DNA from: Spirochaetota bacterium
GTDB lineage: Bacteria > Spirochaetota > UBA4802 > UBA5550
Assembly (NCBI GenBank): GCA_024276015.1
Contig: JAJRXZ010000020.1
Location: forward strand, 8,245-72,244
DNA length: 64,000 nt
Reading direction: 5' to 3'
The notes beneath the pieces are model-generated. The model ran no database searches. It saw nothing but the letters and a program-made list of their open reading frames with translations, and was not told the DNA's origin. Position numbers and translations under genes: made by a program. Shown piece after piece: positions 1,638 to 53,071 of the stretch. Every line of letters starts with the position of its first letter. The stretch's first letter is position 1.

Positions 1638-1663
1638 TTTGATACAATTAATATATTCATAAA

Positions 1664-2458
1664 CTATTCAAGCTCCACTGCGATCCTGAAACCGTAATAG
1701 GGGCTTCTTGCCGTGGGGCATCTTCTGAACCTGTATTCCCTTAATCTTTGCAGATCATGGCTTAAAAATGATCCGCCCCGTAAGATCTTGTATGTTTTTC
1801 CATATTCTTTGTTAGGTATACCACCCGGATATTGTTCAAACCAGTCTATTGTCCATTCCCAGATGATGCCCGGTTTAATTATCCCGTATCTCTTTAATTC
1901 ATTTGAAAAATGTTCCGGATGATACTCCTTAATAAAATTCTTTTCTGTTTTTATAATATTCTCTATACCGGGACAACCTGTTAAAGAGGCAAATACTTCC
2001 CATTCTGTTTCGCGGGGCAGTCTGATCTTCTCTCCGCATTTTGATGAGAGCCAGCGGCAGTACATTTCCGCGTCGTTCCAGCTCACCTGAATAACGGGAT
2101 GGATTGTTTCCATCTCACGATAAAGTCGATCCTTTTTGTCGGCAAAAGGTTTTTCCCAGGATACTCCGCTTTTTTTCATCCATCTCTTTTCCCATACCCA
2201 CCCCCATTTCTCTTTCTCAGCTTCAGTGACGTATCCTGTCTCCTTAACAAATTTTCTAAAATCCCGGCAGGTAACAGGTTTTTTAGCAATTGCAATATTA
2301 TCAAGGAAGATTTCCTGCAAAGGGCAGGAATTCTCAAAATATTCCCTTTTTAAATCTGTACCTGACAATAATTGAGATACTGAATTAAGAATGTTCTGCG
2401 ATATTCCTATCAGGTATTTGCCCCGCGGTATTTTTATATAATCATGGGAAGTGAACAT
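1664..2458 (-). CDS. Formylglycine-generating-enzyme (FGE/SUMF1) domain protein
   Basis: 264 aa. The C-terminal half carries FGE-sulfatase family hallmarks: RLPRETEWEVFA, W..EWT.DWF, RGGSFLS, SPYYGFRIA. Confidence 0.7.
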   Translation of the reverse strand: MFTSHDYIKIPRGKYLIGISQNILNSVSQLLSGTDLKREYFENSCPLQEIFLDNIAIAKKPVTCRDFRKFVKETGYVTEAEKEKWGWVWEKRWMKKSGVSWEKPFADKKDRLYREMETIHPVIQVSWNDAEMYCRWLSSKCGEKIRLPRETEWEVFASLTGCPGIENIIKTEKNFIKEYHPEHFSNELKRYGIIKPGIIWEWTIDWFEQYPGGIPNKEYGKTYKILRGGSFLSHDLQRLREYRFRRCPTARSPYYGFRIAVELE

Positions 2459-6829: not shown

Positions 6830-7228
6830 CTATCTCTTTGCCACTTTTAATCTGATTTTAAGCTTATGTTCTTCTGCGCTGAGAATCAAACCTTCTTCAC
6901 TAAAGGGATCAATCCTGTTTTCTCTGATTTCCCGGATCTTTTTACTGATCTCGTCGCTGTCCAGTTCATCTTTTGTAAATGCGTTTTCAGCAAGGATATT
7001 CATTTTGTTATCAAATATCTCTACCAGCCCCCCTTCAACAACAAGATAATCGGTTTTGTCTCCGTTTCTTAGTCTTATCTCACCGTATCCCAATTGAGTG
7101 ATCAGCGGTGTGTGGTTGATTAAGAAACCCATCTCACCGTCGTATGCCTGTACAACTGCAAAGTCTGCTTCGCCTTCATAGAGATATTTTTCAGGTGTAA
7201 GTATGCTGCATTTGATCTTTTTTCTCAT
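6830..7228 (-). CDS. atpC: F-type ATP synthase epsilon subunit
   Basis: 132 aa. N-terminal beta-sandwich motif (LTPEKYLYEGEADFAVVQAYDGEMGFL) and C-terminal helical region. It is the last gene of the atp cluster. Confidence 0.85.
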   Translation of the reverse strand: MRKKIKCSILTPEKYLYEGEADFAVVQAYDGEMGFLINHTPLITQLGYGEIRLRNGDKTDYLVVEGGLVEIFDNKMNILAENAFTKDELDSDEISKKIREIRENRIDPFSEEGLILSAEEHKLKIRLKVAKR

Positions 7229-7231
7229 TAT

Positions 7232-8650
<1,419 letters not shown>

Positions 8651-8692
8651 TCATCTCCTTATTGATTTGCATGTTTCATTATTGATTTATGT

Positions 8693-9577
8693 TTAATCAA
8701 GAGCTGCCGCTCCTCCACATATTTCCGCGATTTCGTTTGTAATTTTGGCCTGTCTTGCCCTGTTATATGTTACTGTCAGTTCTTTAATTATTTCTCCGGA
8801 TGCATCGGTTGCATTTTTCATTGCAATTCTTCGTGCAAATTGCTCTGAAAATGACGATTCAATAAAACAGTTAAAAACTTTTACATTAAGGTATAAAGGC
8901 AGAATGTATGATAATATTTTCTCAGGATCCGGATCAAAAATATATTTTGACCTGAGGCGCTGTGAATATTCTTCCTCTTCTTCTATTTCGGGCGGAGTTA
9001 TGGGAAGCAGTTTAAATATTTCCGGTTTCTGTGACGATCTGGTTATGACTTTTGTATAGGAAATATATATTTCGTGCATTTCACCGCTGATGAAGAGATC
9101 TCTCAGTTCATTACAGAAGCGCGAGGCAAAATCAAAGGTTATTTTGTCTTCCGGATTCGGTATAAATTTATAGATCGGTTCGTTTATGAATTTCAGATAA
9201 TTTGAACCTTTTTTACCAATAACATAATTAAATGTTTCCTTGCCTTCGCCTGTTAACTTCTCTCTTAATGTGAGAGAGTTGAAAATAACATTTGTATTAA
9301 AACTGCCGCAGAGACCTCTATTGCCGGTTAACTGAACGATCATTATCTTATTGGGGTTTACAAATTCACTGAAGAGAGGGTCGTAAAGTTCGGTAATTTC
9401 AGAGTTAAGCAGGTTTGTCATAATCTCGTTTACTTTAGATTCATATGCCTTTGACATTTCCAGGCGCAGCTGCATTTTTTTCATTTTTGCACTGGCAACC
9501 ATTTCCATGGTGCTTGTAATTTTTTTTGTATTTTTGATCGATTTTATTCGATTCTTTATATTTCGTTGATTTGCCAC
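8693..9577 (-). CDS. atpG: F-type ATP synthase gamma subunit
   Basis: 294 aa. Sits between alpha and beta. Conserved C-terminus (...TNEIAEICGGAAAL). Confidence 0.9.
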   Translation of the reverse strand: MANQRNIKNRIKSIKNTKKITSTMEMVASAKMKKMQLRLEMSKAYESKVNEIMTNLLNSEITELYDPLFSEFVNPNKIMIVQLTGNRGLCGSFNTNVIFNSLTLREKLTGEGKETFNYVIGKKGSNYLKFINEPIYKFIPNPEDKITFDFASRFCNELRDLFISGEMHEIYISYTKVITRSSQKPEIFKLLPITPPEIEEEEEYSQRLRSKYIFDPDPEKILSYILPLYLNVKVFNCFIESSFSEQFARRIAMKNATDASGEIIKELTVTYNRARQAKITNEIAEICGGAAALD

Positions 9578-9604
9578 AACAATACCTTTTAAAGATTAGA
9601 AATT

Positions 9605-11134
9605 TTATTCAGGCAGCTTGGATATGTAATCATTTACAAATTCTGCGGTTATTTCATTCAGCCTGTCAGGATCTTCAAGCTCGCCGGTTTCGGTTATTCC
9701 CGATAAAATTTCCGGATGAGTTTCTCGTAAGAATTTAAGATATTCCGATTCAAAATTCTGTATATTTTCAACCGGAACCTGGTCGCATAGTCCCTGAGTT
9801 CCTGCAAAAATAATTGCAACCTGTTCTGGAACATCCATAGGAACATATTGCCCCTGTTTCAGAATTTCTACAAGCCGTACTCCTCTGTCCAACTGTTTCT
9901 GCGTTGCAGCATCAAGTTCCGTACCCATCTGCGCAAATGCTTCAAGTTCTCTGAATTGCGCAAGGTCAAGTCTCAGGGATCCTGCATATTTTTTCATTGC
10001 TTTGATCTGGGCGTTGCCCCCGACTCTGGAAACCGATATTCCAACATCAATGGCAGGTCTTATTCCGGAAGCAAATAGATTTGGGAGAAGATATATTTGG
10101 CCGTAGGTAATGGAGATCACATTAGTAGGGATATATGCCGATACTTCACCCTCCTGAGTTTCAATTATCGGCAGCGCTGTAAGAGAGCCGCCGCCTCTTT
10201 CATCCGATAATTTGGCAGATCGTTCAAGAAGCCTTGAGTGGCAGTAAAAAATATCGCCCGGATATGCTTCTCTGCCGGGAGGTCTTCTTAAAAGGAGGGA
10301 TAGCTCTCTGTATGCATTTGCCTGTTTTGAAAGGTCGTCGTAAATACATAAAGTGTGCTGATTCTTTTCATACATAAAGTATTCTGCCATTGCGCATCCC
10401 GCGTATGGAGCTATATACTGCATAGGCGCCGGGTCAGAAGCGTTGGCTGCAACTACAATGGTATAATCCATTGCGCCGCTTTCCTGAAGTTTCTGAACAA
10501 CTCCGGCAACAGTTGATGCCTTTTGTCCGATGGCAATATAAACACATTTTACTCCTTTACCCTTTTGATTTATAATAGTGTCAATTGCAATCGCCGTTTT
10601 GCCGGTTTTTCTGTCGCCGATGATCAACTCCCTCTGGCCCCTTCCAATAGGCGTCATAGAATCAACAGCTTTGATCCCGGTTTGAAGAGGCTCTTTTACA
10701 GGCTGTCTGTCTGCAATTCCGGGCGCATTGTATTCAACTGGCCAGTACCTGTCGGTAGAGATAGGACCTTTGCCGTCCAGAGGTTCTCCAAGCGGCGTTA
10801 AAACTCTTCCCAGCAGCTCTTCACCTGCAGGTACTGCCAAAACTCTGTTTAATTTTTTAACAGAATCGCCTTCTTCAATTTTGAGGTAGTCTCCCAGAAT
10901 TGCAACACCGACGGAATCTTCTTCAAGGTTCAAAACCATACCCTGTATGCCGTTTTCAAATTCAACCATTTCTGCTGCCATTGCGTTTTGAAGGCCGTGT
11001 ATTTTTGCGATCCCATCGCCAATTTGAGTTACTGTTCCAACTTCTTTTATATCGAGTTCGGATTTGAATCCTTCTATTTCCTGCTTAATTATTGATTTTA
11101 TTTCGTTAGTTTTAATCTTCATAAGCTGCTTCAC
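9605..11134 (-). CDS. atpA: F-type ATP synthase alpha subunit
   Basis: 509 aa. Walker [19 protein letters not shown]. Conserved F1 alpha sequence. Confidence 0.95.
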
Positions 11135-11681
11135 TCCCGACTTTTGTGAATAGTAGGTTATTCCTTAGTTTTTTTAAATCATTTATAAGTGATCCGTCTA
11201 TAACCAGATCGTTGATTTTTATAATAATCCCGCCCAGGATGGACTCATCAATTTTTTCCCGGATTAAAATATTTTTATTTAATGTTTTGTTTAGTTTGAC
11301 GGATATCTCTTCCCTGGCCGATTGTTCCAGTTTCTCTTTTGTTATTACAGTTACTTTTTGTCTGTTATGCAATTTATCAATTTCATCCAGCACGGCATTA
11401 TAAATATTATTGAGTTCTTTTAAACGCCTGTTGCGGATAATTGTCTTAAAAAAATTAATTGTGTTGTCATGAAGTTTCCCGGAGAATACTTTAGCAATTA
11501 ATTTTGATTTATTATTATCTGAAATGTCCGGTGATGTTAGAAAACTGCTGAAATCTTTATCATCGTTGTATAGATCAATAAGAAATTTTAACTCTTCTTC
11601 CAGTTCGGGAAGGATGTTCTTTTCGTTTCCTATTTCTACAAATGATCCGGCATATATTTTTGCAACATTACTATAAGACAC
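11112..11681 (-). CDS. atpH: F-type ATP synthase delta (OSCP) subunit
   Basis: 189 aa. Sits between atpF and atpA and overlaps atpA by 23 nt. OSCP-like helical N-terminus. Confidence 0.75.
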
Positions 11682-11742
11682 GTTTTTTCCTTAATAATTT
11701 CAATATAATACATAATACGTATAATTAAGAACAGCTCAGTAA

Positions 11743-12252
11743 TTACTGAACTGTTCTTAATTTATCCAGCGTCTCTTGAACGAGAGATTTTTGGTCTTCC
11801 GGGTTTAAGTTTTTGTTTATTATTTTTGAAGCAATTTCAGTTGAAATATTTACAATTTCCGATTTTATTTCAGCCAGAGCTTCTTCTTTAGCAAGCTTAA
11901 TTTCCTGTTTTGCTCTTTCTGCAAGTTCTCTGGAATCATTGTTTGCTTTTTCAATGATCTCATTTCTGATTTTTTCTGCTTCAATTTTACTTTTTGCAAT
12001 AATTTCAGCAGCTTCATCTTTAGCCCTGTCCATCATCTCTTTATGCTGAGCAAGAAGCTTTTCAGCTTCGATCCTCTTCCTGTCTGCGCTTTCAATGTCT
12101 CCGCGGATTCTTTCCGACCTGGCATCCAGAGCATCAACAATAGGCTTCCAGGCCATTTTCCATAGAATGAGCATTAACACCATAAAAGTGATTATAGTCC
12201 ACAGAAACAGTCCCGGATCGACTCTCAGTAGTCCTTCTTTAATGAAATCCAT
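11743..12252 (-). CDS. atpF: F-type ATP synthase subunit b
   Basis: 169 aa. Single N-terminal TM (LFLWTIITFMVLMLILW) followed by a long charged coiled-coil. Confidence 0.8.
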   Translation of the reverse strand: MDFIKEGLLRVDPGLFLWTIITFMVLMLILWKMAWKPIVDALDARSERIRGDIESADRKRIEAEKLLAQHKEMMDRAKDEAAEIIAKSKIEAEKIRNEIIEKANNDSRELAERAKQEIKLAKEEALAEIKSEIVNISTEIASKIINKNLNPEDQKSLVQETLDKLRTVQ

Positions 12253-12300
12253 ATTGCTACCTATTAATTTTGATCAACCTCTTCACGAGCCCGGTTTATA

Positions 12301-12588
12301 CTATTTGCCTTCAACAGACTGTGTTGTCTTTTCAACCTGTTGCGGTGCCGGTTTTTCCACCGGTTTATGAGTGGCAAGCATAAAAGTAACAACAAGTGCA
12401 AAAAATGTAAAACCTTCAATAAGAGCTGCAGCAATGATCATTGCAGTTCTTAAATCTCCGCTAACTTCGGGTTGTCGGGCCATACCTTCAAGTGAGGCGG
12501 CTGCTAATTTGCCAATCCCCATAGAAGCGCCAAAAACGATTAACCCGGCTCCTAATCCGGCTGCTACATACGCTAATCCTAGTTCCAT
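12301..12588 (-). CDS. atpE: F-type ATP synthase subunit c, with a ~25-aa C-terminal extension
   Basis: 95 aa. Helix 1 is GLGAGLIVFGASMGIG, loop ARQPE, helix 2 AALIEGFTFFALVVTFML with the conserved carboxylate E. A non-canonical tail HKPVEKPAPQQVEKTTQSVEGK follows. Confidence 0.85.
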   Translation of the reverse strand: MELGLAYVAAGLGAGLIVFGASMGIGKLAAASLEGMARQPEVSGDLRTAMIIAAALIEGFTFFALVVTFMLATHKPVEKPAPQQVEKTTQSVEGK

Positions 12589-12699
12589 TTATCAAATCCT
12601 CCTAAAAGATTTTTAAACTTATAGTATATAATAGTCTTAATATTATATTTAAAGAACAATTTCAAACATATTTTGTCCGGCCGAAACCATAAAACTCTC

Positions 12700-13578
12700 T
12701 TAATGAGCATGCATCGATGAACCGATATACATTGCAGACAGAGATGCAAAGATATATGCTTGTATAAATGCAACAAGTAATTCAAGTAAATAGATCATTA
12801 GGGACCCTGTGATCGAACCGAGGCCTACAAAGTAACTCTGAAACATAATCGAAAGATAAAGGAAAATAATAATTACAATATGACCTGCTGTCATGTTGGC
12901 AAAGAGTCGTATAGTAAGCGCAAAGGGTTTGATGAAAATTCCCAGTAATTCAATGACCCAGAGTAACGGAAAGAGAAATAAGGGTACGCCGTGAGGTACG
13001 ATCCCCTTAATGATCCAGAAGGGACCCTGTCTTACCGTACCGACAGCAATTACGCATATTAATGTTATTACTGCAAGGCCGGCCGTTACTGCAAGATTTC
13101 CTGTTGAAGTCGCCATTCCGGGAATCAAACCGATAAAATTGGCAAAAAGAATGAAAAAGAAAAGATTCAGAAAATAGGGCATTGCCTTTTTGATATATTT
13201 ATGGTCAAAATTAGGTTCAACTATTTCGTCATGGACAAAACCGATGAGGGATTCCCAGAAATTTACCCATTTCGATTTGGATCCCATAATATCCTTTTTG
13301 ATTCTTTTTGCAAGAGGCACAAAAATTATTACGGCTAAGAACAGCGCTACCCAGAGCATTATTACCCATTTTGTAATTCTCATGTCAAAGATGCCGAATA
13401 GCTTTTTGTTCAGATAGGTATTATTGATCTCCCCTATAAGATCTCCAATTCCGAAGAAACCTTCTGTAATGGGATGATCCGTGATGTGATGCATTACTAT
13501 ATCATAGATCGATTCTTCTTCGCCGCCTTTACCGCCGGAACTTACATAGGAATTAACAAACTGTAAAAAACGCAGCAT
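12700..13578 (-). CDS. atpB: F-type ATP synthase subunit a
   Basis: 292 aa polytopic membrane protein carrying the essential-Arg motif RLFANMTAGH. Confidence 0.9.
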   Translation of the reverse strand: MLRFLQFVNSYVSSGGKGGEEESIYDIVMHHITDHPITEGFFGIGDLIGEINNTYLNKKLFGIFDMRITKWVIMLWVALFLAVIIFVPLAKRIKKDIMGSKSKWVNFWESLIGFVHDEIVEPNFDHKYIKKAMPYFLNLFFFILFANFIGLIPGMATSTGNLAVTAGLAVITLICVIAVGTVRQGPFWIIKGIVPHGVPLFLFPLLWVIELLGIFIKPFALTIRLFANMTAGHIVIIIFLYLSIMFQSYFVGLGSITGSLMIYLLELLVAFIQAYIFASLSAMYIGSSMHAH

Positions 13579-13948
13579 TGTAACCTCTTACATGAAAGAA
13601 TATAAACATTCTGGTTTAAAATTTAATTTTTATTATCTATTATTACAATTTAAAGATTGATTTGTGATATTATATTCAACAATTTTTTATTTTATTCCAC
13701 AATTTTTGCGAATGACAAAAATTTTTTCCCTAAATAATGAATATTTCGGATTACAATTTTTTTTCTTTTTATTTCAATATATTTAATATTGAGTATATTA
13801 TATTAAAATTTAATTACATATTTTATTTGCTTTATAGAGTTTTACAAAGTCTTATACTGATTCCAAATGAAACATGAAGTTGTCAAGTTTTTTTCCAATA
13901 ATAACTTGAATTTGGGAGTTATTTTACGGTTACAGAAAAAAAATCCTG

Positions 13949-14203
13949 TTACATCCACCTGTTTTTTTTCTTTTCATCATCTTGAAGGTTATTATTAACA
14001 TCTTTTCCTTCTAAAAGGTCTTTTATGAGAAGATAAAATCCGATTATCATTCCCAAAAATGTTCCGGCAATAAGAAAAAGAGGCGATCTATTATAGTGTT
14101 CATCCAGCTTTTGTCCGCCCAGAACGAAAAGAAGTATTGTAACTGCAAGCTGAATACCTGCCGTGGCGTAACTATATGGGCCTTTTTGAAAATTCTTATT
14201 CAT
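13949..14203 (-). CDS. AtpZ/AtpI-like small membrane protein (ATP synthase-associated)
   Basis: 84 aa with two predicted TM helices. It lies upstream of atpB, separated from it by a 370-bp AT-rich leader. Size and topology fit the AtpZ/AtpI family. Confidence 0.55.
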   Translation of the reverse strand: MNKNFQKGPYSYATAGIQLAVTILLFVLGGQKLDEHYNRSPLFLIAGTFLGMIIGFYLLIKDLLEGKDVNNNLQDDEKKKNRWM

Positions 14204-16300: not shown

Positions 16301-17383
16301 TTAAATCTGAATTTTTGCTCCCAGCTGCAAATTAATATCCTTCTTATTTCTCAGGTTAACCATCGATTCGGCAGTTATGTGGATCAAAAAGAGGCTAATG
16401 TCGAAACCGATAATATATAAAGGGACATATATTTTCGGGCTGTAGCTGTTAGATGACGCAAGCGTCATTGTGCCGAGGGTATCAGTACCTGCTGCTGCAA
16501 TGTAAGTTGAGCTTGTTGTTGTAACGGTTCCCGTGCCTTCAACATCAAGGCTGAAATGGCCAAAGTTAAATGATATGCCAAGCCCTGTGTACATACTGAA
16601 TATCCAGAGAAAATCAAAATAAGCAATGATCTGACTGTTGGCAGAGAGAATATACCATTTTATATCGGCAGTATAATCCGATGTCAAGTCAAGCGACACG
16701 TCTTCTGTTGTTGATACGGGAGAGGGGATGTCAACCTGGATGTTCCCGAGAGGATATTCCAGCTGTCCTCCCACCTGCAGAAGGCCTTTCAGCATATCTG
16801 CGCCTATGCTGAAAGTTACGCCTCCAAGCTCCAGAAGTCCCGGCAATATGGTATGATCCTGTATCAGATTATATCTTATTTTCCCGCCCACAGAATAAAG
16901 GTTTAATTTATTTAACTGAAGATAGGTTTTGCTGTATGGAGGATTATACATACCGGAACTGAATACCAGAGTTTTGAACATTATATCGAGTCCTTTTCCC
17001 AAGCCAAGGCCGAAATATGCAGCAGGGTTAACTCCTCCGGCAGGATACTTTCTTTCTTCTTTTTTTTCGCTGTCAAAGTATTCCATATTTGTCAGACCCG
17101 CTGTAAGTGAAGCGCCGATGAAAAAGTGGGGGAAACCGCCGAGGTATGCCTTTCCCATGGGGTATCCTGCAAAATTTGACAGGGCAAATCCATTGGCAAT
17201 ACCGGGGCCGAAATAATCCACGCTTTCCTGGATCAATGTTCCGATCTCCGAGATACCGGCTGCAGCAATATCCGGAGCATTACTGGTATCAATGGTAGTT
17301 TCAGAATAAACTCCTGAACAGATTAAAAATAAAAGAAGGATCATGAATATTACAATGCGGGTCTTTTTCATAGGATCTCCCAT
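16301..17383 (-). CDS. Secreted or outer-membrane protein, hypothetical
   Basis: 360 aa. N-terminal signal peptide (MKKTRIVIFMILLLFLICSGVYS), Gly/Tyr-rich, with alternating hydrophobic segments consistent with beta strands. The family is unknown. Confidence 0.5.
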   Translation of the reverse strand: MGDPMKKTRIVIFMILLLFLICSGVYSETTIDTSNAPDIAAAGISEIGTLIQESVDYFGPGIANGFALSNFAGYPMGKAYLGGFPHFFIGASLTAGLTNMEYFDSEKKEERKYPAGGVNPAAYFGLGLGKGLDIMFKTLVFSSGMYNPPYSKTYLQLNKLNLYSVGGKIRYNLIQDHTILPGLLELGGVTFSIGADMLKGLLQVGGQLEYPLGNIQVDIPSPVSTTEDVSLDLTSDYTADIKWYILSANSQIIAYFDFLWIFSMYTGLGISFNFGHFSLDVEGTGTVTTTSSTYIAAAGTDTLGTMTLASSNSYSPKIYVPLYIIGFDISLFLIHITAESMVNLRNKKDINLQLGAKIQI

Positions 17384-27440: not shown

Positions 27441-29945
27441 TTAAATTTGCCGCTGCGAAATTTCGTTTTTAAATTTTCTTACTTTAATCGTATACTTGTC
27501 AATTATTTCGTCTCTCTGTTTATTGGTCTCACCTTCCGCATAAATATGTACTATGGGCTGAGTTGCATCAGGAAGGATCAAAACCCATGCATTATCCTCA
27601 TAGATTTTAATGCCGTCAATAAGTTCGGTTTTTTCAGGATCAGCGTCTATGTTAAGCATTCTCATTACGGCTGCTTTTTCTTCTATAGTGCAATGAATGA
27701 GAGTATTTGTCACGTTGCTTGCAGGCAGGCTCTCCTTGATCTCATATAAAGGTTTGTCTTCAATCGTAAGGAATTTTAATACTCTCAGGAAGGTTATCAT
27801 GGGGTCGTAAATCTGTTCTAAGTAAGGGTATCGTTCCTCTGTATCTGTTCTGAAAATATCGGAGATCTTATCCGGTGAATATAGTTTTGAACTTGTCCTT
27901 ATTACTTCGCCGCCGTGAGAAGTGATCATGTTCTCAATCTTTTTTGATATTGTAACAGGGATCTTGATTATTTTTGCGTTTTTATATTTTAAATAATAGA
28001 TGGACAGGATGGCGCTTATATCGTTGTTTGTTAATGTATTCCCGGTCTCGTCAACTATGGTGATTTCTGTCCCGTGAGGATTTACCAGCACTCCTATTTC
28101 ATTATTTATCTTTGCCATTTTGACCATTTTTTTCAATGATATTCTGATTTCGTTTTTTATGTCTTCTTCGCTGATGAATTCCCTTGCCTGCCCTCTATGC
28201 ACAGTTGCATTGCATCCGAAGTAATTAAGCAGTTCCGGGAAAACGTATGATGTTGTTCCGTGAAGGCAGTCTACCAGCAGGTTCCATCGCCTTTCCTTCA
28301 AAATATCGAGATTTATATAGTTGCCTATATTTGTAATATACGATTCGATATGATGTGTGGGATAAACCAGTTTTCCTGTTTCAAAGGCGTCCTTTCTGGG
28401 ATAATCGCCTCTGAAAAAAATGTTTTCAATTTTTTTCTCTTCGCTCAGAGAAATTTGGAAACCGTGCTTGTCAAATATCCTGATCTGCAAAAACTGAAGA
28501 CCCGTAAATGGAGAGATCTGGATGTAAACTCCCATGTCGGCTTTAAAAAATTTAATACTGTATCTGATTATAGGAACGGATTCAATTTCCATATCAAAGA
28601 CATCGGTGCCCATTGACAAAAGGCCCGCTGTAAAAGCTCTTTTTATAATTCTTGCTGCAGATGTGGAATCGCGCCCGATTACGATCTTTGAATTTTTTCC
28701 CAGGTAGGCCCCGAGGGCAGAGCCGAGTTTAGACGCGAATTCGGGATTTATCTTTAGATTGAATCTTCCCAGAATCCCGTCTGAACTGAAGAGAGTCTTT
28801 TTTTCGGTCTGTCCCCAGATAAGGTCTGTGGTCAATCTTGTTTCCTGCTCAATGAATTTATCGGGCCATACTCTTATGCCCGAGGGGATGATCACGTCCT
28901 TTCCGAGTCTGCAATCGTCGCTTACAACGGAACCTTCATAGAGCGTTACGCCTTCCTGCAGAACGCAGCGTTTTCCTATGTTTGCGCCGCGCAGTTCGCA
29001 TTTAGGGCCGATCACTGTGCTGTGAAGGATCACGCTTCTTCTTATTGAAGCATTATCTTCAATTATGCAGTTGTCTCCGATTACGGAGAATTCCGAGATC
29101 TCAGCGCCTTTTTTTACGCGGACAAAGTTGCCCAGAATAACCGGAGCCTTTATGTCCGCTTCAGGGTGAATATCGACATCTCTTCCCACCCAGATATTTT
29201 TTGAGATCTGTTTGCCCGGGATTTCAATGCTTACAAGCCCGTCAAGGATGTCTTTGTGTACCTGGCTGTAAGTGTTGAGATTGCCCACATCGCACCAATA
29301 ACCTTTTGCAACATAACCGTAAAGAGGGACCTTGTTTTCCATTAAGATGGGAAACAGGTTTAATGAAAAATCGAACTTTGTATTTGCCGGTACATACTCA
29401 TTGATGATATCCGGTTCTATCATATACATTCCGGTGTTGGCAGTATCGGTAAAAACTTCACTCCATGACGGCTTTTCAAGGAATTTTTGAATTCTTCCGT
29501 TTTCGTCTGTTATGACGATGCCGTATTCCGTTGGTTTGCTTACGCGTGTTAACATAATTGTAAATTCGGATTGCTTGCTTTTATGGTAGTTAAGGATCTC
29601 CGTAATATCAAAATCGATAATTCCGTCCCCGCTTAATACAATAAAGGTGTCGTTGTGTTTGCCGATGGCCTGTTTCACGCCGCCTGCTGTTCCCAGGGGC
29701 GTTTCTTCAACGGAGTAGGTGATATTTACGTCCCATTCGGAACCGTCGCCGAAATAGTTTTGTATGTTCTCGGGCAGATAATAGAGGCTGATTATAATAT
29801 CTGTTATATTATGTCTTTTTAACAGATTAACCGCATGCTCAATAACAGGTTTGTTTATTACAGGGATCATCGGTTTGGGTCTGTTGCATGTTAAGGGTCT
29901 CAGTCTTGTTCCTTCGCCGCCTGCCATGATAATTGCTTTAACCAT
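27441..29945 (-). CDS. Bifunctional sugar-1-phosphate nucleotidyltransferase / phosphohexomutase-like protein
   Basis: 834 aa. The N-terminus MVKAIIMAGGEGTRLRPLT...PKPMIPV is an NDP-sugar pyrophosphorylase signature. A left-handed beta-helix region follows. The C-terminal half resembles the alpha-D-phosphohexomutase (PGM/PMM) family. Confidence 0.6.
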   Translation of the reverse strand: MVKAIIMAGGEGTRLRPLTCNRPKPMIPVINKPVIEHAVNLLKRHNITDIIISLYYLPENIQNYFGDGSEWDVNITYSVEETPLGTAGGVKQAIGKHNDTFIVLSGDGIIDFDITEILNYHKSKQSEFTIMLTRVSKPTEYGIVITDENGRIQKFLEKPSWSEVFTDTANTGMYMIEPDIINEYVPANTKFDFSLNLFPILMENKVPLYGYVAKGYWCDVGNLNTYSQVHKDILDGLVSIEIPGKQISKNIWVGRDVDIHPEADIKAPVILGNFVRVKKGAEISEFSVIGDNCIIEDNASIRRSVILHSTVIGPKCELRGANIGKRCVLQEGVTLYEGSVVSDDCRLGKDVIIPSGIRVWPDKFIEQETRLTTDLIWGQTEKKTLFSSDGILGRFNLKINPEFASKLGSALGAYLGKNSKIVIGRDSTSAARIIKRAFTAGLLSMGTDVFDMEIESVPIIRYSIKFFKADMGVYIQISPFTGLQFLQIRIFDKHGFQISLSEEKKIENIFFRGDYPRKDAFETGKLVYPTHHIESYITNIGNYINLDILKERRWNLLVDCLHGTTSYVFPELLNYFGCNATVHRGQAREFISEEDIKNEIRISLKKMVKMAKINNEIGVLVNPHGTEITIVDETGNTLTNNDISAILSIYYLKYKNAKIIKIPVTISKKIENMITSHGGEVIRTSSKLYSPDKISDIFRTDTEERYPYLEQIYDPMITFLRVLKFLTIEDKPLYEIKESLPASNVTNTLIHCTIEEKAAVMRMLNIDADPEKTELIDGIKIYEDNAWVLILPDATQPIVHIYAEGETNKQRDEIIDKYTIKVRKFKNEISQRQI

Positions 29946-30174: not shown

Positions 30175-30699
30175 TCAGTATTTATAAATGGCTTTACCAA
30201 TGATCAAGTCGTCTTTGACAGGCCCGAAAGTGCGGCTGTCAAAACTGAAGTCAATATTGTCTCCGATAAGGAAGTATTCATTTTCTCCTAATCTGATTGG
30301 CGGCATGTTATCCCTGTAAGAAAAAACCGCAGGAAAGATCCTTTTGTCCCCGGATTTGGTTTTCCATTTGAATGTGACCCTTTTGCTGTTTATATAAAAG
30401 ACTTTATTTCGTATTTCAACAGTATCGTTTGCCCCGGCAATAACTCTTTTAAAAAGAACTTTCTTCTGTTCAAGGGGATTGCTCAAGAGAACCGCATCTC
30501 CTATGGAGGGCTCTGTTCTTTTCAGTATAATAACGGTATCGCCTTTTTTATATTGGGGCAGCATTGAGTTGTCCTTTAGCACAAAGGATCCCATAAAGGT
30601 TCTGCAGATGAAAAAACCGCCTATTATTCCGGCCATGACAAAAATAATCTTTTTCAAAGGCGATATTTTATCCGGATCCTTTTCATAATAATATAGCAT
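30175..30699 (-). CDS. lepB: Signal peptidase I
   Basis: 174 aa. N-terminal TM, SMLP (catalytic Ser box), GDNIDFSFDSR (box E). Confidence 0.85.
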   Translation of the reverse strand: MLYYYEKDPDKISPLKKIIFVMAGIIGGFFICRTFMGSFVLKDNSMLPQYKKGDTVIILKRTEPSIGDAVLLSNPLEQKKVLFKRVIAGANDTVEIRNKVFYINSKRVTFKWKTKSGDKRIFPAVFSYRDNMPPIRLGENEYFLIGDNIDFSFDSRTFGPVKDDLIIGKAIYKY

Positions 30700-30869: not shown

Positions 30870-30898
30870 TTGACACAGAATAATAGTTTTAATAATAT
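30870..30898 (+). promoter_or_regulatory. Candidate sigma70-type promoter upstream of the FlaA-like pair
   Basis: TTGACA (30870-30875), a 17-nt spacer, then TAATAT (30893-30898), about 130 bp upstream of the first FlaA-like ATG. Found by eye only. Confidence 0.35.
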
Positions 30899-31025
30899 TA
30901 AAAATTAATTATATAAGTTTTTTTTTATTCTAAATTTTTGCTATTTTTCTGTCGAAATTTAATATGGAGTTAGTGATTTTTTCTATGATCGGGAAGAAAA
31001 AATCGTATTAATAAAGGAGTTTACA

Positions 31026-31805
31026 ATGGAAAGGACGGCCAAGATTTTAACATTGTCGATTATTATAGGAGTTCTGGTCCTTTTTCTCGGCAATGGAACC
31101 CTCGAATTAATTGCACAGCCGGCTGCAGGCAAAAAAGGCGGGGGAACAACCACCAAAAGCAAAAAGAAACAGGATGGCTTAGTCGTTGACTGGTTAAATG
31201 ATTTTGAAGCCTGTGAGGACTGGAGAGCAATTTCTACATGCCCTATTGGTGAGACCAAAATTCGAAAAATTCCCGGAAAACCGAGACCGGTAAATGCCGA
31301 AGGAAAGTTGATCAATGAGAAGGGTGAGCCCGGTGAATTTGCAAATGAAATAGTTGATGAAAACGGATTAACTCATAAGAACGAGTATGTACTGGGTGTG
31401 AAAACTTATTTTCTTGAGAGAGGATTTGACAGAGTTGAAGTCTTTCCGCCTAATGAATATATTATAAGAGGAAAAGCCAGAGAGATGAAAGTCTGGGTTC
31501 TGGGAAGAAAATTCCGCCATACTCTCTTTGTCAAACTAAGGGATTACAGAGGGAGGATCCATAAAATTAAAATCGGAAGACTTGATTTCTGGGGATGGAA
31601 AGAATTGTCCGTAATTATTCCCGGCTGGCTGCCTCAGTCAACCAGTTATGCCGTTCTTGATAAAAATCTACACTTTGTATCTTTTTATGTTGAAAGTGAC
31701 AAGTATGAGGTCCCTGGCACTTTTTATTTTTATCTGGACCAGTTCAGGGTTAGCACCGATCTGTCAGAATACTCAGGTGATGAAACAATACAGGATACAT
31801 GGTAA
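31026..31805 (+). CDS. FlaA-like protein (flagellar filament outer-layer / sheath family of spirochetes), paralog 1
   Basis: 259 aa with a signal peptide. The conserved core MKVWVLGRKFRHTLFVKLRDYRGRIHKIKIGRLDFWGWKELSVIIP...YFYLDQFRV resembles FlaA-family blocks as I recall them. It is a clear paralog of the next gene. Confidence 0.5.
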   Translation: MERTAKILTLSIIIGVLVLFLGNGTLELIAQPAAGKKGGGTTTKSKKKQDGLVVDWLNDFEACEDWRAISTCPIGETKIRKIPGKPRPVNAEGKLINEKGEPGEFANEIVDENGLTHKNEYVLGVKTYFLERGFDRVEVFPPNEYIIRGKAREMKVWVLGRKFRHTLFVKLRDYRGRIHKIKIGRLDFWGWKELSVIIPGWLPQSTSYAVLDKNLHFVSFYVESDKYEVPGTFYFYLDQFRVSTDLSEYSGDETIQDTW

Positions 31806-31865
31806 AATATGATGACTATATTAAATTTGGAAATTTTAAGGGAATGTTAAGAAGGGAGGCTTACA

Positions 31866-32750
31866 ATGGTTAGTTTTATAAAAAGACTGGTATTGATTAC
31901 ACTGTGTCTTAATATCATAGTTTTGGTGAGTATTCCCAAAAATGCTGAATCTAAGATTGTAACCAATGTGCCGTCTGATATGAGTGGAGAAGAACTGAAG
32001 GCGCTCGTAATAGAAGATTTTGAAAAAGCAACAGTTGGAGGGGACGGGTGGATCATTAAATCAACTCCAAGACAATTTAAAAAGGCCGAGACTTCAAAAA
32101 AGTTAAAAATGAAAAATCCGGTTCCTGCCCTTGAATTAAAGCTTGTAAAGGGGAAACCCAATGCCATGGTTGTTGAGGAATGGTCATTAACGGGTCAGGG
32201 AAAAGTTAAAGAGAAGTGTCTTGGCGTTCATTTTAAATTCAGATATCCGGGATTCAATTCCGTCCATATTTTGCCTCCGAAAGAGCTGGACTGGAGAGAG
32301 AAAAAACCGGCTTATACATATCAGCCCAGCACTAATAAAAGTATTCAGGAAAGAGGCATACAATTGCCGGGCAGAGCAAGAGGCATCTCTCTGTGGGTGC
32401 ATGCAAGAGGAAGACCCTATACGCTGGAAGTATGGATAAAAGACTACAAAGGCAATACCCATGTCTTGCCCTTCGGTTCTATCAATTTTGTGGGCTGGAG
32501 GCCCATGAAAGTATATATACCGACAACGATACCTCAAAAAGCAACATCCTATCCGGTGACAAGGATCACAAAAATAACCAGATTTGTGATCAGGGCAATG
32601 CCGGATGCAGTTCCGGGAGATACTTACGTGTTTTTTGATCAGTTAAAAGTTTTAACAGATACATACGAAGTTAACTTTGATGGTTCCGATCTCCATAAGG
32701 CTTTTGAGAAAGGATCGTCAAGCAGCAGCGGTAAAAAAGGGACAAGATAA
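31866..32750 (+). CDS. FlaA-like protein, paralog 2
   Basis: 294 aa with a signal peptide. ISLWVHARGRPYTLEVWIKDYKGNTHVLPFGSINFVGWRPMKVYIP...YVFFDQLKV aligns block by block to paralog 1. Confidence 0.5.
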   Translation: MVSFIKRLVLITLCLNIIVLVSIPKNAESKIVTNVPSDMSGEELKALVIEDFEKATVGGDGWIIKSTPRQFKKAETSKKLKMKNPVPALELKLVKGKPNAMVVEEWSLTGQGKVKEKCLGVHFKFRYPGFNSVHILPPKELDWREKKPAYTYQPSTNKSIQERGIQLPGRARGISLWVHARGRPYTLEVWIKDYKGNTHVLPFGSINFVGWRPMKVYIPTTIPQKATSYPVTRITKITRFVIRAMPDAVPGDTYVFFDQLKVLTDTYEVNFDGSDLHKAFEKGSSSSSGKKGTR

Positions 32751-32875
32751 TAGATATATTCATAATTATATAAAAATATTTCTTAATTTTTAAATATTAT
32801 GAAAAGAATACCCATCATTATCAACGGATGGGTATTTTCTGTTATTAAAATATCATATTTTTTCAGGATATATTT

Positions 32876-35578
32876 ATGACTGACGCAAAAGTAATGGATA
32901 AACTTAATTCGCTTTTTAAAGAAGAACAGTGGGGGAGAATTGAACCGAAGGATATTGGTACCTCGAAATTTAAGATTCTCGATGATCTTTTTAATTCAAT
33001 TGTTTCAGAAGATCTCATCAGCGAAACTTATGATATATGCAAAAAGCATATTGAAGAAAACAGAGATTCAATAACTGCAATGTATTTAATGGGGTTGATC
33101 GGTTACCACAGGGACAATATTGAAGATTCCATTATGCTGAGAAAACTTATTGATATTTTTATTGATAATCATAAATGGGCTGTTGTTGAAATAATTTCAG
33201 AGAAGATCCTTGAATATGGCGAGAGCAGTATTGCCCTGAGAGCGCTGGCTATGAGCCTTGAGAGACTGGGAAGAAGTAAAGACGCAATCCCTGTTCTTGA
33301 GAATCTTCTTAAGATAGACAGGTTTGATGCGGAAGTATCGAAGAAACTTTCTCTTGCGATCATTGACGAAAACCCGGAAAAAAGTATTCAATATATGAAA
33401 CTTTCAATTGAAGGTTTTATCAAAAACAATGAGTTTGACGAAGTAATAAATCTCTGGAATAAACTTGTTTCCGTATCGTGGGAAGATACTTCTTTTTTTG
33501 ACAGAGTTGAAAGAATGCTTGTTGATGCGAGACATACCGAATTGGTATCCACTCTGTTGAAAACGCTGCTGAATAAATACAAAGAAGAAGAGAATGTGGA
33601 TTACTCCATTGAACTGCTGAAAAAGATCTTAACATACAGACCTGCCGATTCTCATGCAAGAAGGGAACTCATTAAACTATATACTATAAAATACGGCAGT
33701 CATTCTCAATTTAAACAATTCTTAAAATTGTCGAAACTTGAGGATTTCCGTTCTCATGTTAAATATGCCATTATGGATTTTGAGAAAAACATTGTCTTTG
33801 ATAAGGGAAATTATGTTTTTCATAAGTCCTGGAAACTTGGAAAGATCGTTGATATTGAGAGTGAATTCTTAACGATTGATTTTATCGACAAAACCGGCCA
33901 TAAAATGTCCATCGGAATGGCTCTGCAGTCATTAACGCCCATAAATAAAGAACATCTCTATGTGATTGAATTTGAAGATACGGAAATGATAAAAACTCTT
34001 TTTGAAGATGATTTTATGCAGTTTTTTCAGATCCTTGTGAAGTCTTACGGAGGCCAAATTACCTTATCGGATATTAAACACGAACTTATTCCCAAGTTTG
34101 TGAAAGAAAAGGATTGGGCAAAGTGGTGGAGTAAGGCAAGAACAAAGATCAAAAAGGATCCTCTTTTCGGCGTCTCGGATAAGAGAAAAGACCTGATCTA
34201 TATGAGGGATAAACCTCTGACTTTTGCCGATGAGCTTCTCGGAAATTTTATTAAAACCGAATCGTTCAGTGAGAAGCTTGATATTGCAATTGAGTTTATC
34301 AATAATATTACTAAAAGCGAAGGGGCAAAAGTTGTCCAGTATTTTATCGATTATTTTCTGGATGAAGTGAAGGGCAAGTCCGAAACAAGGCAGGTTTTGT
34401 CATACTTTATATTAAAAGATCTTGCCGAATTTACCGATACGTCAAAGTTAAACCTTGATTCAATCAGGTCTAAAGTTCTTCATTTTATCAAAGGAAGCAA
34501 TGAACTCAATTTAATTTCAATTAAAATAAGTTCTTATGATTATAAAAAGCAGTTCGTTAATCTGATCATGGAATCCCGCGATGACTGGACTGAAGTGGTT
34601 TCACAGATACTCTTTGAGATCCCGGTGAGGATACATAAGTTCATAATCAATGTTCTCATCAGAGCGCACGCCTATGGAATAATTAACAGGTTTATTGACA
34701 ATGTTACAACCGGTTCAAGGCAGTATCCTGAGGTCTTTATATGGGCAGCAAAGAACATTCTTAATAAAACATGGGATTATGACTGGCTTGACTATTCAAA
34801 ATCCGCTTTGATCATTGCCTATTTCAGACTGATGAATGAACTGAAAAAGATCGAAACGGACAGCAACAGGCTCAAGAATATGACAATTGATATTCTTTTC
34901 TCCAATGACGAATTTGCTCTGAGGGAAATTGTCAGGGAATTTGACAGTAACTTTCTCAGTAAAATATACGATCTTGTCAGTAATGTCTCTTACATTGAAG
35001 AGGGGCAGGTCGATAAAGTGCTGGAAATTATCAAAGAGAAGTATCCCGGGTTTAAAGTTGGCCAGACCGGCTCCTCGGAAGAGGCGGAGTCGGATTTTGA
35101 GAAGCTCATTGTTACTCAAAAGGGATATGACAGGAAGAAAGCCGAACTGGAGAGACTTGTTAATGTTGAGATGATCGATCTGTCAAAGGAACTGGCAAAG
35201 GTTTCCGAAGTCTCGGGCGATCTGAGGGAAAATGTTGAATATACTGCACTGATGGAAAAGCAGGCTATATTAAAAATGGCAATTTCAAGGCTGGATAATG
35301 ATATCAAAAAAGCGGATATCCTCAATGTTGAGAAAATATCAACCGAATGCGTTAATATTGGCACCAAAGTTAAATTTAAGGATTTAAAAACCGGAGAAGT
35401 GAATAGTTATTCAATACTTGGGCCCTGGGATGCGGATTTTGAATTGAAAATATTGTCGTACCGCTCTCCCATTGCCAAGGCGTTACTTGGCAGTAAGGTA
35501 AATGACGAAGTGGAAATCAGGATCAATGATGAGAATAAGCGTTACAAAATTATTTCTATTGAAAAATGCAGTCTTTAA
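32876..35578 (+). CDS. greA: Transcript-cleavage factor GreA-family protein with a ~750-aa N-terminal extension
   Basis: 900 aa. The last ~150 aa match GreA: a coiled-coil (GYDRKKAELERL...SGDLRENVEYTALMEKQAILKMAISRLDNDIKKADIL) and an FKBP-like C-domain (IGTKVKFKDLKTGEVNSYSILGPWDADFELKILSYRSPIAKALLGSKVNDEVEI). The N-terminal 750 aa are helical-repeat-like and of unknown function. Confidence 0.8.
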   Translation: MTDAKVMDKLNSLFKEEQWGRIEPKDIGTSKFKILDDLFNSIVSEDLISETYDICKKHIEENRDSITAMYLMGLIGYHRDNIEDSIMLRKLIDIFIDNHKWAVVEIISEKILEYGESSIALRALAMSLERLGRSKDAIPVLENLLKIDRFDAEVSKKLSLAIIDENPEKSIQYMKLSIEGFIKNNEFDEVINLWNKLVSVSWEDTSFFDRVERMLVDARHTELVSTLLKTLLNKYKEEENVDYSIELLKKILTYRPADSHARRELIKLYTIKYGSHSQFKQFLKLSKLEDFRSHVKYAIMDFEKNIVFDKGNYVFHKSWKLGKIVDIESEFLTIDFIDKTGHKMSIGMALQSLTPINKEHLYVIEFEDTEMIKTLFEDDFMQFFQILVKSYGGQITLSDIKHELIPKFVKEKDWAKWWSKARTKIKKDPLFGVSDKRKDLIYMRDKPLTFADELLGNFIKTESFSEKLDIAIEFINNITKSEGAKVVQYFIDYFLDEVKGKSETRQVLSYFILKDLAEFTDTSKLNLDSIRSKVLHFIKGSNELNLISIKISSYDYKKQFVNLIMESRDDWTEVVSQILFEIPVRIHKFIINVLIRAHAYGIINRFIDNVTTGSRQYPEVFIWAAKNILNKTWDYDWLDYSKSALIIAYFRLMNELKKIETDSNRLKNMTIDILFSNDEFALREIVREFDSNFLSKIYDLVSNVSYIEEGQVDKVLEIIKEKYPGFKVGQTGSSEEAESDFEKLIVTQKGYDRKKAELERLVNVEMIDLSKELAKVSEVSGDLRENVEYTALMEKQAILKMAISRLDNDIKKADILNVEKISTECVNIGTKVKFKDLKTGEVNSYSILGPWDADFELKILSYRSPIAKALLGSKVNDEVEIRINDENKRYKIISIEKCSL

Positions 35579-35670: not shown

Positions 35671-35754
35671 GCCGCGATGGCGGAATTGGTAGACGCGCTA
35701 GGTTCAGGGTCTAGTGAGCAATAGCTTGTGAGGGTTCGACTCCCTCTCGCGGCA
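35671..35754 (+). tRNA. tRNA-Leu (anticodon CAG)
   Basis: I folded it by hand. Acceptor stem GCCGCGA/TCGCGGC, D-arm GCGG..CGC, anticodon stem CTAGG/TCTAG with loop TTCAGGG (anticodon CAG), a long variable arm, T-arm GAGGG-TTCGACT-CCCTC, and discriminator A. CCA is not encoded. Confidence 0.85.
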
Positions 35755-36053: not shown

Positions 36054-36506
36054 ATGGATAATAAATTTCAATATTCGGATATAAAAAAAACTAAGGAGGA
36101 GATCTTATTTGCCATTAAAGAAAGAGTAAATGAGATCACTTCCGGTGATATTCAAAATCCCTTATATCTTAAAGGCGCTGCGGTTTGTGATACTGCAAAA
36201 TCGGTTTCCGGCAGTGTTAAGTATTTCGATATTCAGTGCATTTTTTATGACGAAAGAGGCAGGCTTTGCGGTGATCTGCTGGGTATTGAAAACAAGAGAG
36301 AGAAGAATATTATATTCGGCAGGCTGATTGAAGAGTTTGATATAGAGGCATTGAGGACTATTTTAAACTGTCTCTACGTCAGAAACCGGTTCTATAATAA
36401 AAGCGGCAATGTGGAAATTCAAGGTAATATTAAAAATAGGATTTTGTCTAAAAGGTTTTCACTTAAAAGCTTATTTGCCGGTCAGATCAGATCTTCAAGT
36501 TTATAG
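36054..36506 (+). CDS. Hypothetical protein
   Basis: 150-aa ORF immediately downstream of tRNA-Leu. No recognisable domain. Confidence 0.4.
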   Translation: MDNKFQYSDIKKTKEEILFAIKERVNEITSGDIQNPLYLKGAAVCDTAKSVSGSVKYFDIQCIFYDERGRLCGDLLGIENKREKNIIFGRLIEEFDIEALRTILNCLYVRNRFYNKSGNVEIQGNIKNRILSKRFSLKSLFAGQIRSSSL

Positions 36507-36511
36507 AGATC

Positions 36512-36874
36512 ATGATTGAAAAAGATAAATATGATGAGATGATGGTTCAGATTGAGAATCGTATTTTTGATGTGCAGATATTGTTGTGCCGTTTTATCAC
36601 CGCAATTATGGAAGAGTTAAATGTAACAGAGTATGAGCTGGATGGTTCTTTTCCATTCATAAGAGATGACGGATCTTTGGTAATATGTACAGAGAAAATT
36701 ATCTACGACAATGAAACCGAAGATCTGATGATTATCTCTAAGAACTATCAGAAAAAAATAAATTGGACTGAACTTGATATTTCAATACTGCATCAAATTG
36801 CAAATGAAATTCATATGAAATACGTTTCAGACAGAATATTAAAGGAATTATCATCAAAGGAAGAAGTGCATTGA
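36512..36874 (+). CDS. Hypothetical protein
   Basis: 120-aa ORF, 5 bp after the previous gene and probably co-transcribed. No recognisable domain. Confidence 0.4.
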   Translation: MIEKDKYDEMMVQIENRIFDVQILLCRFITAIMEELNVTEYELDGSFPFIRDDGSLVICTEKIIYDNETEDLMIISKNYQKKINWTELDISILHQIANEIHMKYVSDRILKELSSKEEVH

Positions 36875-52559: not shown

Positions 52560-52753
52560 CAGGTCACCGATAAATAGATTTTTTACAAGACTGTTTGAGA
52601 CTTCGGATCTATATTAAAGTAGGCACTCCCTTTTCATGTTAAAAAAAATTGAAATGGTTTTCAATAATATTATTTAAAATAATAAAAAAAGATTGTAATA
52701 TTTTTAATGACTTCATATTATTACAGGAAGAAATATTTCATGGAGATGCCGAA

Positions 52754-53071
52754 ATGGATGAAAAAAGAAAATATAAAAGATCAAAAACCGATTTAAAATC
52801 AGAAGTTCATTTTGATGAAGGGATGACTTACAGCAAATCGGTTGATGTCAGCAAGGGAGGTCTATTTATATCGACTCCGGATCCCCTTGAAGCAGGTTCG
52901 GAGGTAAGTCTTTCCCTGCAGATTCCGGGAGAGGACCCTGTTGATATCAGCGGAGTCGTAAGGTGGGTAAGAAGAGAAGAAGATGATAATAATAAAGCGG
53001 GTATGGGTATAGAATTCTTGGATCTGTCTGATGTCGAAATTGAAAAACTGAAAAAGATTGATAATAGCTGA
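52754..53071 (+). CDS. PilZ-domain protein (c-di-GMP receptor)
   Basis: About 105 aa from MDEKRKYKRS. RKYKR is the RxxxR motif. DVSKGG is the D/NxSxxG motif. Beta-barrel-like remainder (VSLSLQIPG...ISGVVRWVRR...GMGIEFL). The track ORF starts earlier, at 52649. Confidence 0.65.
   Translation: MDEKRKYKRSKTDLKSEVHFDEGMTYSKSVDVSKGGLFISTPDPLEAGSEVSLSLQIPGEDPVDISGVVRWVRREEDDNNKAGMGIEFLDLSDVEIEKLKKIDNS

Follow-up and report, generated by a model that had tools for sequence, protein, structure and literature searches.

The stretch of DNA considered here (the window) comprises 64,000 nucleotides (nt) of contig JAJRXZ010000020.1 from a Spirochaetota bacterium, and carries on its forward strand two adjacent genes that very probably form the flaA2-flaA1 operon of an uncultured spirochaete resembling the Leptospirales, encoding two predicted sheath proteins of the periplasmic flagellum. 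This assignment is backed by the protein family, the fold and the orthology, by the order of the genes and their synteny, and by purifying selection and the conservation of promoter elements. Loci of this ordinary kind have been described before; what is new is the uncultured host, and the locus is of little importance beyond correct annotation. The two genes are:

31026..31805, + strand: flaA2-type gene for a predicted sheath protein of 259 amino acids (aa), ATG start; matches to PF04620, NCBIfam, Protein Data Bank (PDB) chains and by structure model
31866..32750, + strand: flaA1-type gene for a predicted sheath protein of 294 aa; matches to PF04620, NCBIfam, PDB chains and by structure model

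An earlier note on this DNA had singled out two adjacent open reading frames (ORFs) of 259 and 294 aa as paralogues with a conserved core, and both were found exactly where it had placed them. Their products align in BLASTP with 30% identity over 190 aa (E = 4e-22), and this alignment displays a core common to both paralogues (W..GR, DY.G..H, F.GW, IP..PQ and Y.F.DQ..V). The ORFs lie on the same strand with a gap of 60 nt, and each is preceded by a Shine-Dalgarno sequence, AAGGAG at 31014-31019 for the FlaA2-type ORF and GGGAGG for the FlaA1-type ORF.

Family, gene order and constraint

Both proteins match the Pfam FlaA family (PF04620; gathering cutoff 25 bits), the FlaA2-type ORF with 87.3 bits (E = 1.6e-24) and the FlaA1-type ORF with 88.2 bits (E = 8.2e-25). 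Each score is thus more than 60 bits over the threshold, and the resemblance to FlaA proposed in the earlier note holds for both. In NCBIfam the upstream ORF scores best against the Leptospira FlaA2 model (NF047846, 240 bits, versus 57 bits for FlaA1), and the downstream ORF against the Leptospira FlaA1 model (NF047845, 188 bits, versus 72 bits for FlaA2). The PDB chains separate the two in the same manner: the upstream ORF recovers FlaA2 chains (10lk_V1, E = 2.6e-66; 10lm_V0, E = 6.5e-64) with 227 bits for its own against 54 for the other paralogue, and the downstream ORF recovers FlaA1 chains (10lk_T1, E = 7.3e-49; 9cyn_A, E = 2.2e-46) with 170 against 61 bits. Entries 10LK, 10LL and 10LM are cryo-electron microscopy structures of L. 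interrogans and L. biflexa filaments, while 9CYN is the crystal structure of L. borgpetersenii FlaA1. Judged from these sequence comparisons, the two proteins are orthologues of FlaA2 and FlaA1 from a sister lineage of Leptospira. Database searches return hundreds of homologues with 64-82% identity to the FlaA2-type and 52-75% identity to the FlaA1-type protein, and those that are named carry the labels "flagellar filament outer layer protein FlaA" or "endoflagellar filament sheath protein".

AlphaFold2 models of the FlaA2-type and FlaA1-type proteins are of moderate confidence, with a mean predicted local distance difference test (pLDDT) score of 68.9 and 75.5, respectively. Comparison of the models with known structures, which had been suggested earlier, likewise points to FlaA. 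For both models the top PDB match in Foldseek is 9CYN, with E = 1.2e-12 and a target-normalised template modelling (TM) score of 0.62 for the FlaA2-type model, and E = 1.5e-20 and a target-normalised TM score of 0.76 for the FlaA1-type model. The matches that follow 9CYN are, for both models, β-sandwich carbohydrate-binding modules (CBMs), in keeping with a publication that describes FlaA as a new family of Ca2+-dependent CBMs (PMC13518957). Taken together, the Pfam, PDB and fold results exclude the alternative left open in the earlier note, namely an uncharacterised family of paralogous proteins.

The relatives were collected in a one-genome-per-species scan, from which the best 80 of 187 were kept (loci L001-L080); they comprise Spirochaetota and "Leptospirales" metagenome-assembled genomes (MAGs), along with Leptospira (L064, L065). 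In tblastn of the window proteins against the 80 kept loci, the FlaA2-type gene has a FlaA1-type gene immediately downstream in every one, Leptospira included. A greA gene of about 900 codons comes next after flaA1 in every locus that extends far enough, again including Leptospira. In the window this gene is:

32876..35578, + strand: long-form GreA of 900 aa, with the N- and C-terminal domains of Pfam GreA_GreB at residues 745-896

The GreA domains are thus confined to the last ~150 residues, the N-terminal ~740 aa being without a Pfam match, and the gene is conserved neighbour context that stands outside the sheath function. As flaA2 is upstream of flaA1 in one operon in both L. biflexa and L. 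interrogans (PMC13144727), the order in the window is that published for Leptospira. These loci show the FlaA2/FlaA1 pair, its order and its greA neighbour to be ancestral to a broad, mostly uncultured radiation related to Leptospira. Upstream of the pair, a signal peptidase I, an NTP-transferase/phosphoglucomutase fusion and an M20 peptidase are common to the nearer relatives only. The fusion protein (27441-29945, − strand; 834 aa) joins a nucleotidyl-transferase/hexapeptide region to a phosphoglucomutase/phosphomannomutase, and is kept upstream of flaA in many relatives. Just downstream of greA is a tRNA gene (35671-35754, + strand), the only Rfam match at gathering threshold in the window. 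It is followed by two + strand ORFs without a Pfam or NCBIfam match (36054-36506, 150 aa; 36512-36874, 120 aa), for which weak tblastn matches (20-42% identity, 40-87 bits) are found downstream of greA in many related loci.

The best genome match to the window reaches only 82% (L001), and therefore the host, an uncultured Leptospirales-like spirochaete, belongs to an undescribed species of an uncultured radiation. A relative, the MAG HGW-Spirochaetae-1, encodes both a FlaA2-type protein with 78% identity (P0013) and a flagellin (P0263). Along with the conserved sigma-28-type promoter and the purifying selection on both genes described below, this lends indirect support to the view that the host of the window may likewise encode flaB, fliA and motor genes. 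Elsewhere in the window, a 360-aa protein (16301-17383, − strand) weakly matches the model of the Leptospira Lsa36-family surface lipoproteins (48.6 bits, below the cutoff of 90), and this sub-threshold match is a further sign of Leptospira affinity.

In comparisons with relatives, the proportion of nonsynonymous differences (pN) is 0.11-0.19 against a synonymous proportion (pS) of 0.72-0.86 for the FlaA2-type gene, and 0.18-0.31 against 0.78-0.82 for the FlaA1-type gene; pN and pS are given instead of dN/dS because synonymous sites are saturated in most pairs. As pN is far below pS, both genes are under strong purifying selection. The FlaA2-type gene evolves markedly slower than the FlaA1-type gene in the same genome pairs, and this stronger constraint fits the literature that names FlaA2 as the more critical protein. 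Mean column identity in the FlaA2-type alignment is 74%, and the FlaA1-type alignment has 56 invariant columns, including putative Ca2+-binding Asp residues. The published Ca2+ ligands of L. biflexa FlaA2 are Asp52, His102 and Asp219 (PMC13518957). In the alignment to the PDB chain, Asp52 and Asp219 correspond to D59 and D238 of the FlaA2-type protein, both invariant in the clade, and their FlaA1-type equivalents, D51 and D258, likewise show no variation in the alignment of that type. D238 and D258 fall within the conserved core seen in the earlier note (its "Y.Y.DQ" segment), while D59 and D51 are part of a D-F-E motif that lies N-terminally, upstream of that core.

Promoters, leader and terminator

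Between the divergent signal peptidase I gene and greA, the following elements accompany the two genes:

30870..30898, + strand: sigma-70-type promoter TTGACA-17 nt-TAATAT (TTGACA at 30870-30875, TAATAT at 30893-30898), from direct reading and a consensus scan
30931..30958, + strand: sigma-28 (FliA)-type promoter-like element (TAAA at 30931-30934, spacer, GTCGAAAT at 30951-30958)
30969..31012, + strand: predicted leader hairpin (minimum free energy fold) with GGGAA in the loop
32805..32847, + strand: intrinsic-terminator-like hairpin between the flaA1-type gene and greA (12-bp stem, 10-nt loop, then a T-rich run)

The sigma-70-type promoter had been recognised in the earlier note, and its -35 box recurs in relatives: a perfect TTGACA is present within 300 nt upstream of flaA2 in 70 of 79 related loci, against 7.0 +/- 2.5 in shuffled sequences, while its reverse complement is found there in only five of the 79. 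The sigma-28-type element, absent from that note, lies between this promoter and flaA2, 61 nt downstream of the former. The pattern TAAA-N15-17-NCGA occurs in 59 of the 79 related loci (5.2 +/- 2.1 in shuffles), and in 71 of them if the -35 part is relaxed. Columns that the search had left free are also conserved, with, for example, a C preceding CGA in 64/67 and a T following it in 49/67, giving a clade consensus of TAAATTT...CCGAT usually located ~60-90 nt upstream of the start codon in relatives. A sigma-28 site has been predicted upstream of the mapped transcription start site of flaA in L. interrogans (PMC5243855; review PMC12655853). In Treponema denticola and Brachyspira, flaA is sigma-70-driven (PMC9481697). 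The element is likely to be a flagellar-regulon promoter that acts besides the sigma-70 one, and its conservation links the two genes to the flagellar regulon. Tandem promoters are suggested by this element and the conserved TTGACA taken together. The presence of the sigma-28-type element upstream of flaA2 across the clade also lends small comparative-genomics support to the published Leptospira predictions.

The flaA2 leader (30959-31025) contains, in addition to the GGGAA of the hairpin loop, further GGA motifs in an ATGGAG upstream of the hairpin and in the Shine-Dalgarno AAGGAG (31014-31019). By eye and in single-sequence folds, this layout resembles that of CsrA-regulated flagellin leaders. 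Leaders diverge strongly between subgroups of the relatives, and no Rfam family matches the promoter, leader or operon region at E <= 1. In three close relatives (L013, L002 and L001) single-sequence folds give similar leader stems of different sequence.

At the other end, the hairpin at 32805-32847 is terminator-like and probably closes a two-gene operon before greA; the RNA fold of 32751-32875 has an energy of -25.3 kcal/mol (z = -3.4). A consensus terminator scan missed this hairpin because its loop limit was 8 nt.

Export, genomic isolation and alternative readings

In the AlphaFold models both proteins begin with a hydrophobic helix (residues 2-21/22). In the FlaA2-type protein the helix is followed by a small-residue (-3,-1) site, L-I-A|Q, of which A30 and Q31 are invariant or nearly so in homologues, and in the FlaA1-type protein by A-E-S|K, of which S29 is invariant. 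Reading of the alignments by eye finds no conserved lipobox Cys in either protein. The description of the proteins as secreted in the earlier note is accordingly reasonable, and it is a reasonable inference that both carry a putative signal peptide of Sec type, including a site for signal peptidase I. A lipoprotein assignment for the FlaA1-type protein, through Cys14 in its "LITLC" segment, was considered and rejected, as this Cys lies within the hydrophobic core and is unconserved in homologues. FlaA proteins are substrates of signal peptidase I, and a gene for this enzyme (Peptidase_S26; 30175-30699, − strand) is divergent from the flaA2 promoter region. It is also found in nearer relatives and is absent at this place in the Leptospira loci, and its position next to flaA2 may be a coincidence.

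The surroundings of the operon are housekeeping in character, with an F-type ATP synthase operon, recA, methionine aminopeptidase, signal peptidase I, greA and others. A screen of the window covered 60 ORFs (53 with a length of 110 aa or more, three shorter ones in the ATP-synthase gap and four others), and none of the 60 matched a flagellar or chemotaxis family of Pfam or NCBIfam; tblastn likewise found no flagellin in the 64-kb window. This bears out the earlier statement that no other motility gene lies within 30 kb, with the qualification that 13 of the screened ORFs have no accepted family match (a few have sub-threshold matches only) and may include lineage-specific sheath proteins. The ATP synthase operon (6830-14203, − strand) is complete (epsilon, beta, gamma, alpha, delta, b, c, a), and an AtpI-like "ATPase_gene1" small protein (13949-14203) precedes its genes. 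Proteins of cyclic di-GMP signalling, such as PilZ and GGDEF proteins, often modulate motility, and the window encodes a stand-alone PilZ-domain protein (52649-53071, + strand) and a GAF-GGDEF protein (2472-4397, − strand), neither of them flagellar structural.

The earlier note had compared this placement with the isolated flaA loci of Leptospira. With respect to gene order and synteny the likeness stands, but with respect to isolation it does not fully do so: in six Leptospira or Leptospira-like loci (L059, L060, L061, L064, L065 and L080) flaB lies ~4 kb upstream of flaA2, at about 1190-2170 (+ strand) of each locus, and these loci are therefore less isolated than that of the window. No flagellin was found in the available sequence of the window or of the other related loci. 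The T. denticola flaA likewise counts as an "orphan" among flagellar genes (PMC9481697), and a location outside flagellar gene clusters is normal for flaA. It is unsurprising because FlaA is exported by Sec and not by the flagellar type III secretion system.

Orthology and the published work on Leptospira and Treponema point to co-transcription, export and sheath assembly for the products of the window. In the mechanism we propose, flaA2 and flaA1 would be transcribed together from the tandem sigma-70-type and sigma-28-type promoters, with transcription ending before greA. Both products would be exported through Sec, with cleavage by signal peptidase I, and so bypass the flagellar type III system, and would fold in the periplasm into Ca2+-stabilised, bent jelly-roll domains like those of carbohydrate-binding modules. 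An antiparallel dimer of the FlaA1-type protein might then be placed between two FlaA2 protofilaments, and the resulting asymmetric sheath would set the curvature and stiffness of the filament and hence motility (PMC13518957, PMC13144727).

Several observations weigh against this interpretation. The NCBIfam scores do not reach the equivalog cutoffs (240 versus 440 bits for FlaA2 and 188 versus 500 for FlaA1); these models were built on the genus Leptospira, and under NCBI's strict definition the proteins do not count as equivalogs of that genus. The FlaA2-type model is only moderately confident (pLDDT 68.9), and the third Ca2+ ligand, His102, aligns to E120/Y121 and not to a His, with a one-residue length difference adjoining. 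Finally, the sigma-28 -10 box of the window (GTCGAAAT) is a weaker match than that of most relatives, reading TCGAA where the consensus is CCGAT.

The sub-cutoff NCBIfam scores, the lack of a flagellar neighbour in 64 kb and the many carbohydrate-binding modules among the fold matches could also be read as signs that FlaA-domain proteins were recruited to binding of glycans, for example peptidoglycan or exopolysaccharide, in a non-flagellar role in the periplasm or at the surface, the flagellar genes being elsewhere or lost; it has also been speculated that the outer groove of FlaA1 may contact peptidoglycan (PMC13518957). We consider such a recruitment very unlikely: the genes are one-to-one orthologues of those in the Leptospira operon, which has been characterised experimentally, and are syntenic with it; the flagellar promoter of sigma-28 type is conserved; FlaA2-type residues are very strongly conserved (mean column identity 74%); and a flagellin co-occurs with a FlaA2-type protein in a relative MAG. 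Moreover, we know of no FlaA-family protein with a non-flagellar role, which also counts against it. That the FlaA2-type protein is the only functional sheath component and its partner a dispensable, drifting paralogue appears extremely unlikely. The faster evolution of the FlaA1-type gene (pN 0.18-0.31 versus 0.11-0.19) would fit such drift, as would the slight phenotype of the flaA1 deletion alone in L. biflexa (PMC13144727) and the absence of FlaA1 from the filament map of L. biflexa (PMC13518957). Yet 80/80 loci have an intact FlaA1-type gene next to the FlaA2-type one, its pN is still far below pS, 56 of its columns, including putative Ca2+-binding Asp residues, are invariant, and FlaA1 has been resolved as a structural dimer in the filaments of L. 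interrogans and T. denticola (PMC13518957).

Within the preferred reading, that of a flaA2-flaA1 sheath operon, we tentatively raise a further idea, which we think somewhat improbable. The pair might be a fixed regulatory module across the Leptospirales-like radiation, with its tandem promoters, a structured GGA leader as a possible CsrA target and a fixed linkage to the long-form greA, and might represent the ancestral minimal asymmetric sheath in lineages such as that of the window, where the Leptospira-specific FcpA/FcpB may be lacking. If so, sheath synthesis would be tied to the flagellar hierarchy though the proteins bypass flagellar export. Independently of this idea, the 80 diverse orthologous loci could inform which FlaA residues matter for the binding of glycan or Ca2+.

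Comparison with known systems

The closest known counterpart is the flaA2-flaA1 operon of Leptospira (10LK, 10LL, 10LM, 9CYN), in which the two paralogues likewise stand on one strand in this order, followed by the long-form greA. The FlaA domain and jelly-roll fold, the putative Sec-type signal peptides and the sigma-28-type upstream element are alike, and of the three published positions of Ca2+ ligands, two have a conserved Asp in the window proteins. In the locus of a MAG labelled L. biflexa (L065), tblastn identity is 68% for the FlaA2-type and 51% for the FlaA1-type protein. The window differs in that its lineage is represented by an uncultured Leptospirales/Spirochaetota MAG of ~37% GC, its proteins score below the NCBI equivalog cutoffs, and its FlaA2-type protein, which has an insertion around residues 88-115, exceeds that of Leptospira by ~18-20 aa. 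Only nearer relatives share the signal peptidase I, the NTP-transferase/phosphoglucomutase fusion and the M20 peptidase found upstream. The flaB found ~4 kb upstream in Leptospira-like loci has no counterpart within 30 kb in the window.

The minor FlaA1/FlaA2 and major FlaA (TDE1712) of Treponema denticola and the FlaA of Brachyspira hyodysenteriae belong to the same family (PF04620). They form a periplasmic sheath around the FlaB core, depend on Sec for export and are encoded outside flagellar operons by an "orphan" flagellar gene (PMC9481697). The antiparallel FlaA1 dimer between two FlaA2 protofilaments has been reported in both Leptospira and Treponema (PMC13518957). Sequence similarity of the window proteins to this group is much lower. 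The PDB chains 9pin/10pl ("FlaA, putative") reach 55-80 bits, compared with 170-227 bits for those of Leptospira. The T. denticola flaA further differs in having a sigma-70 promoter within an 11-gene cluster, and the major Treponema FlaA is larger (349 aa).

Beyond the flagellar proteins, the same jelly-roll β-sandwich fold is found in CBM11, CBM61, CBM4 and CBM22 (Foldseek E = 1e-5 to 1e-3), with no detectable sequence similarity (7-16% identity). While these CBMs are appended to glycoside hydrolases, FlaA proteins are stand-alone subunits that coat a filament. The glycan recognition typical of CBMs is also the published mode by which FlaA2 binds the FlaB core.

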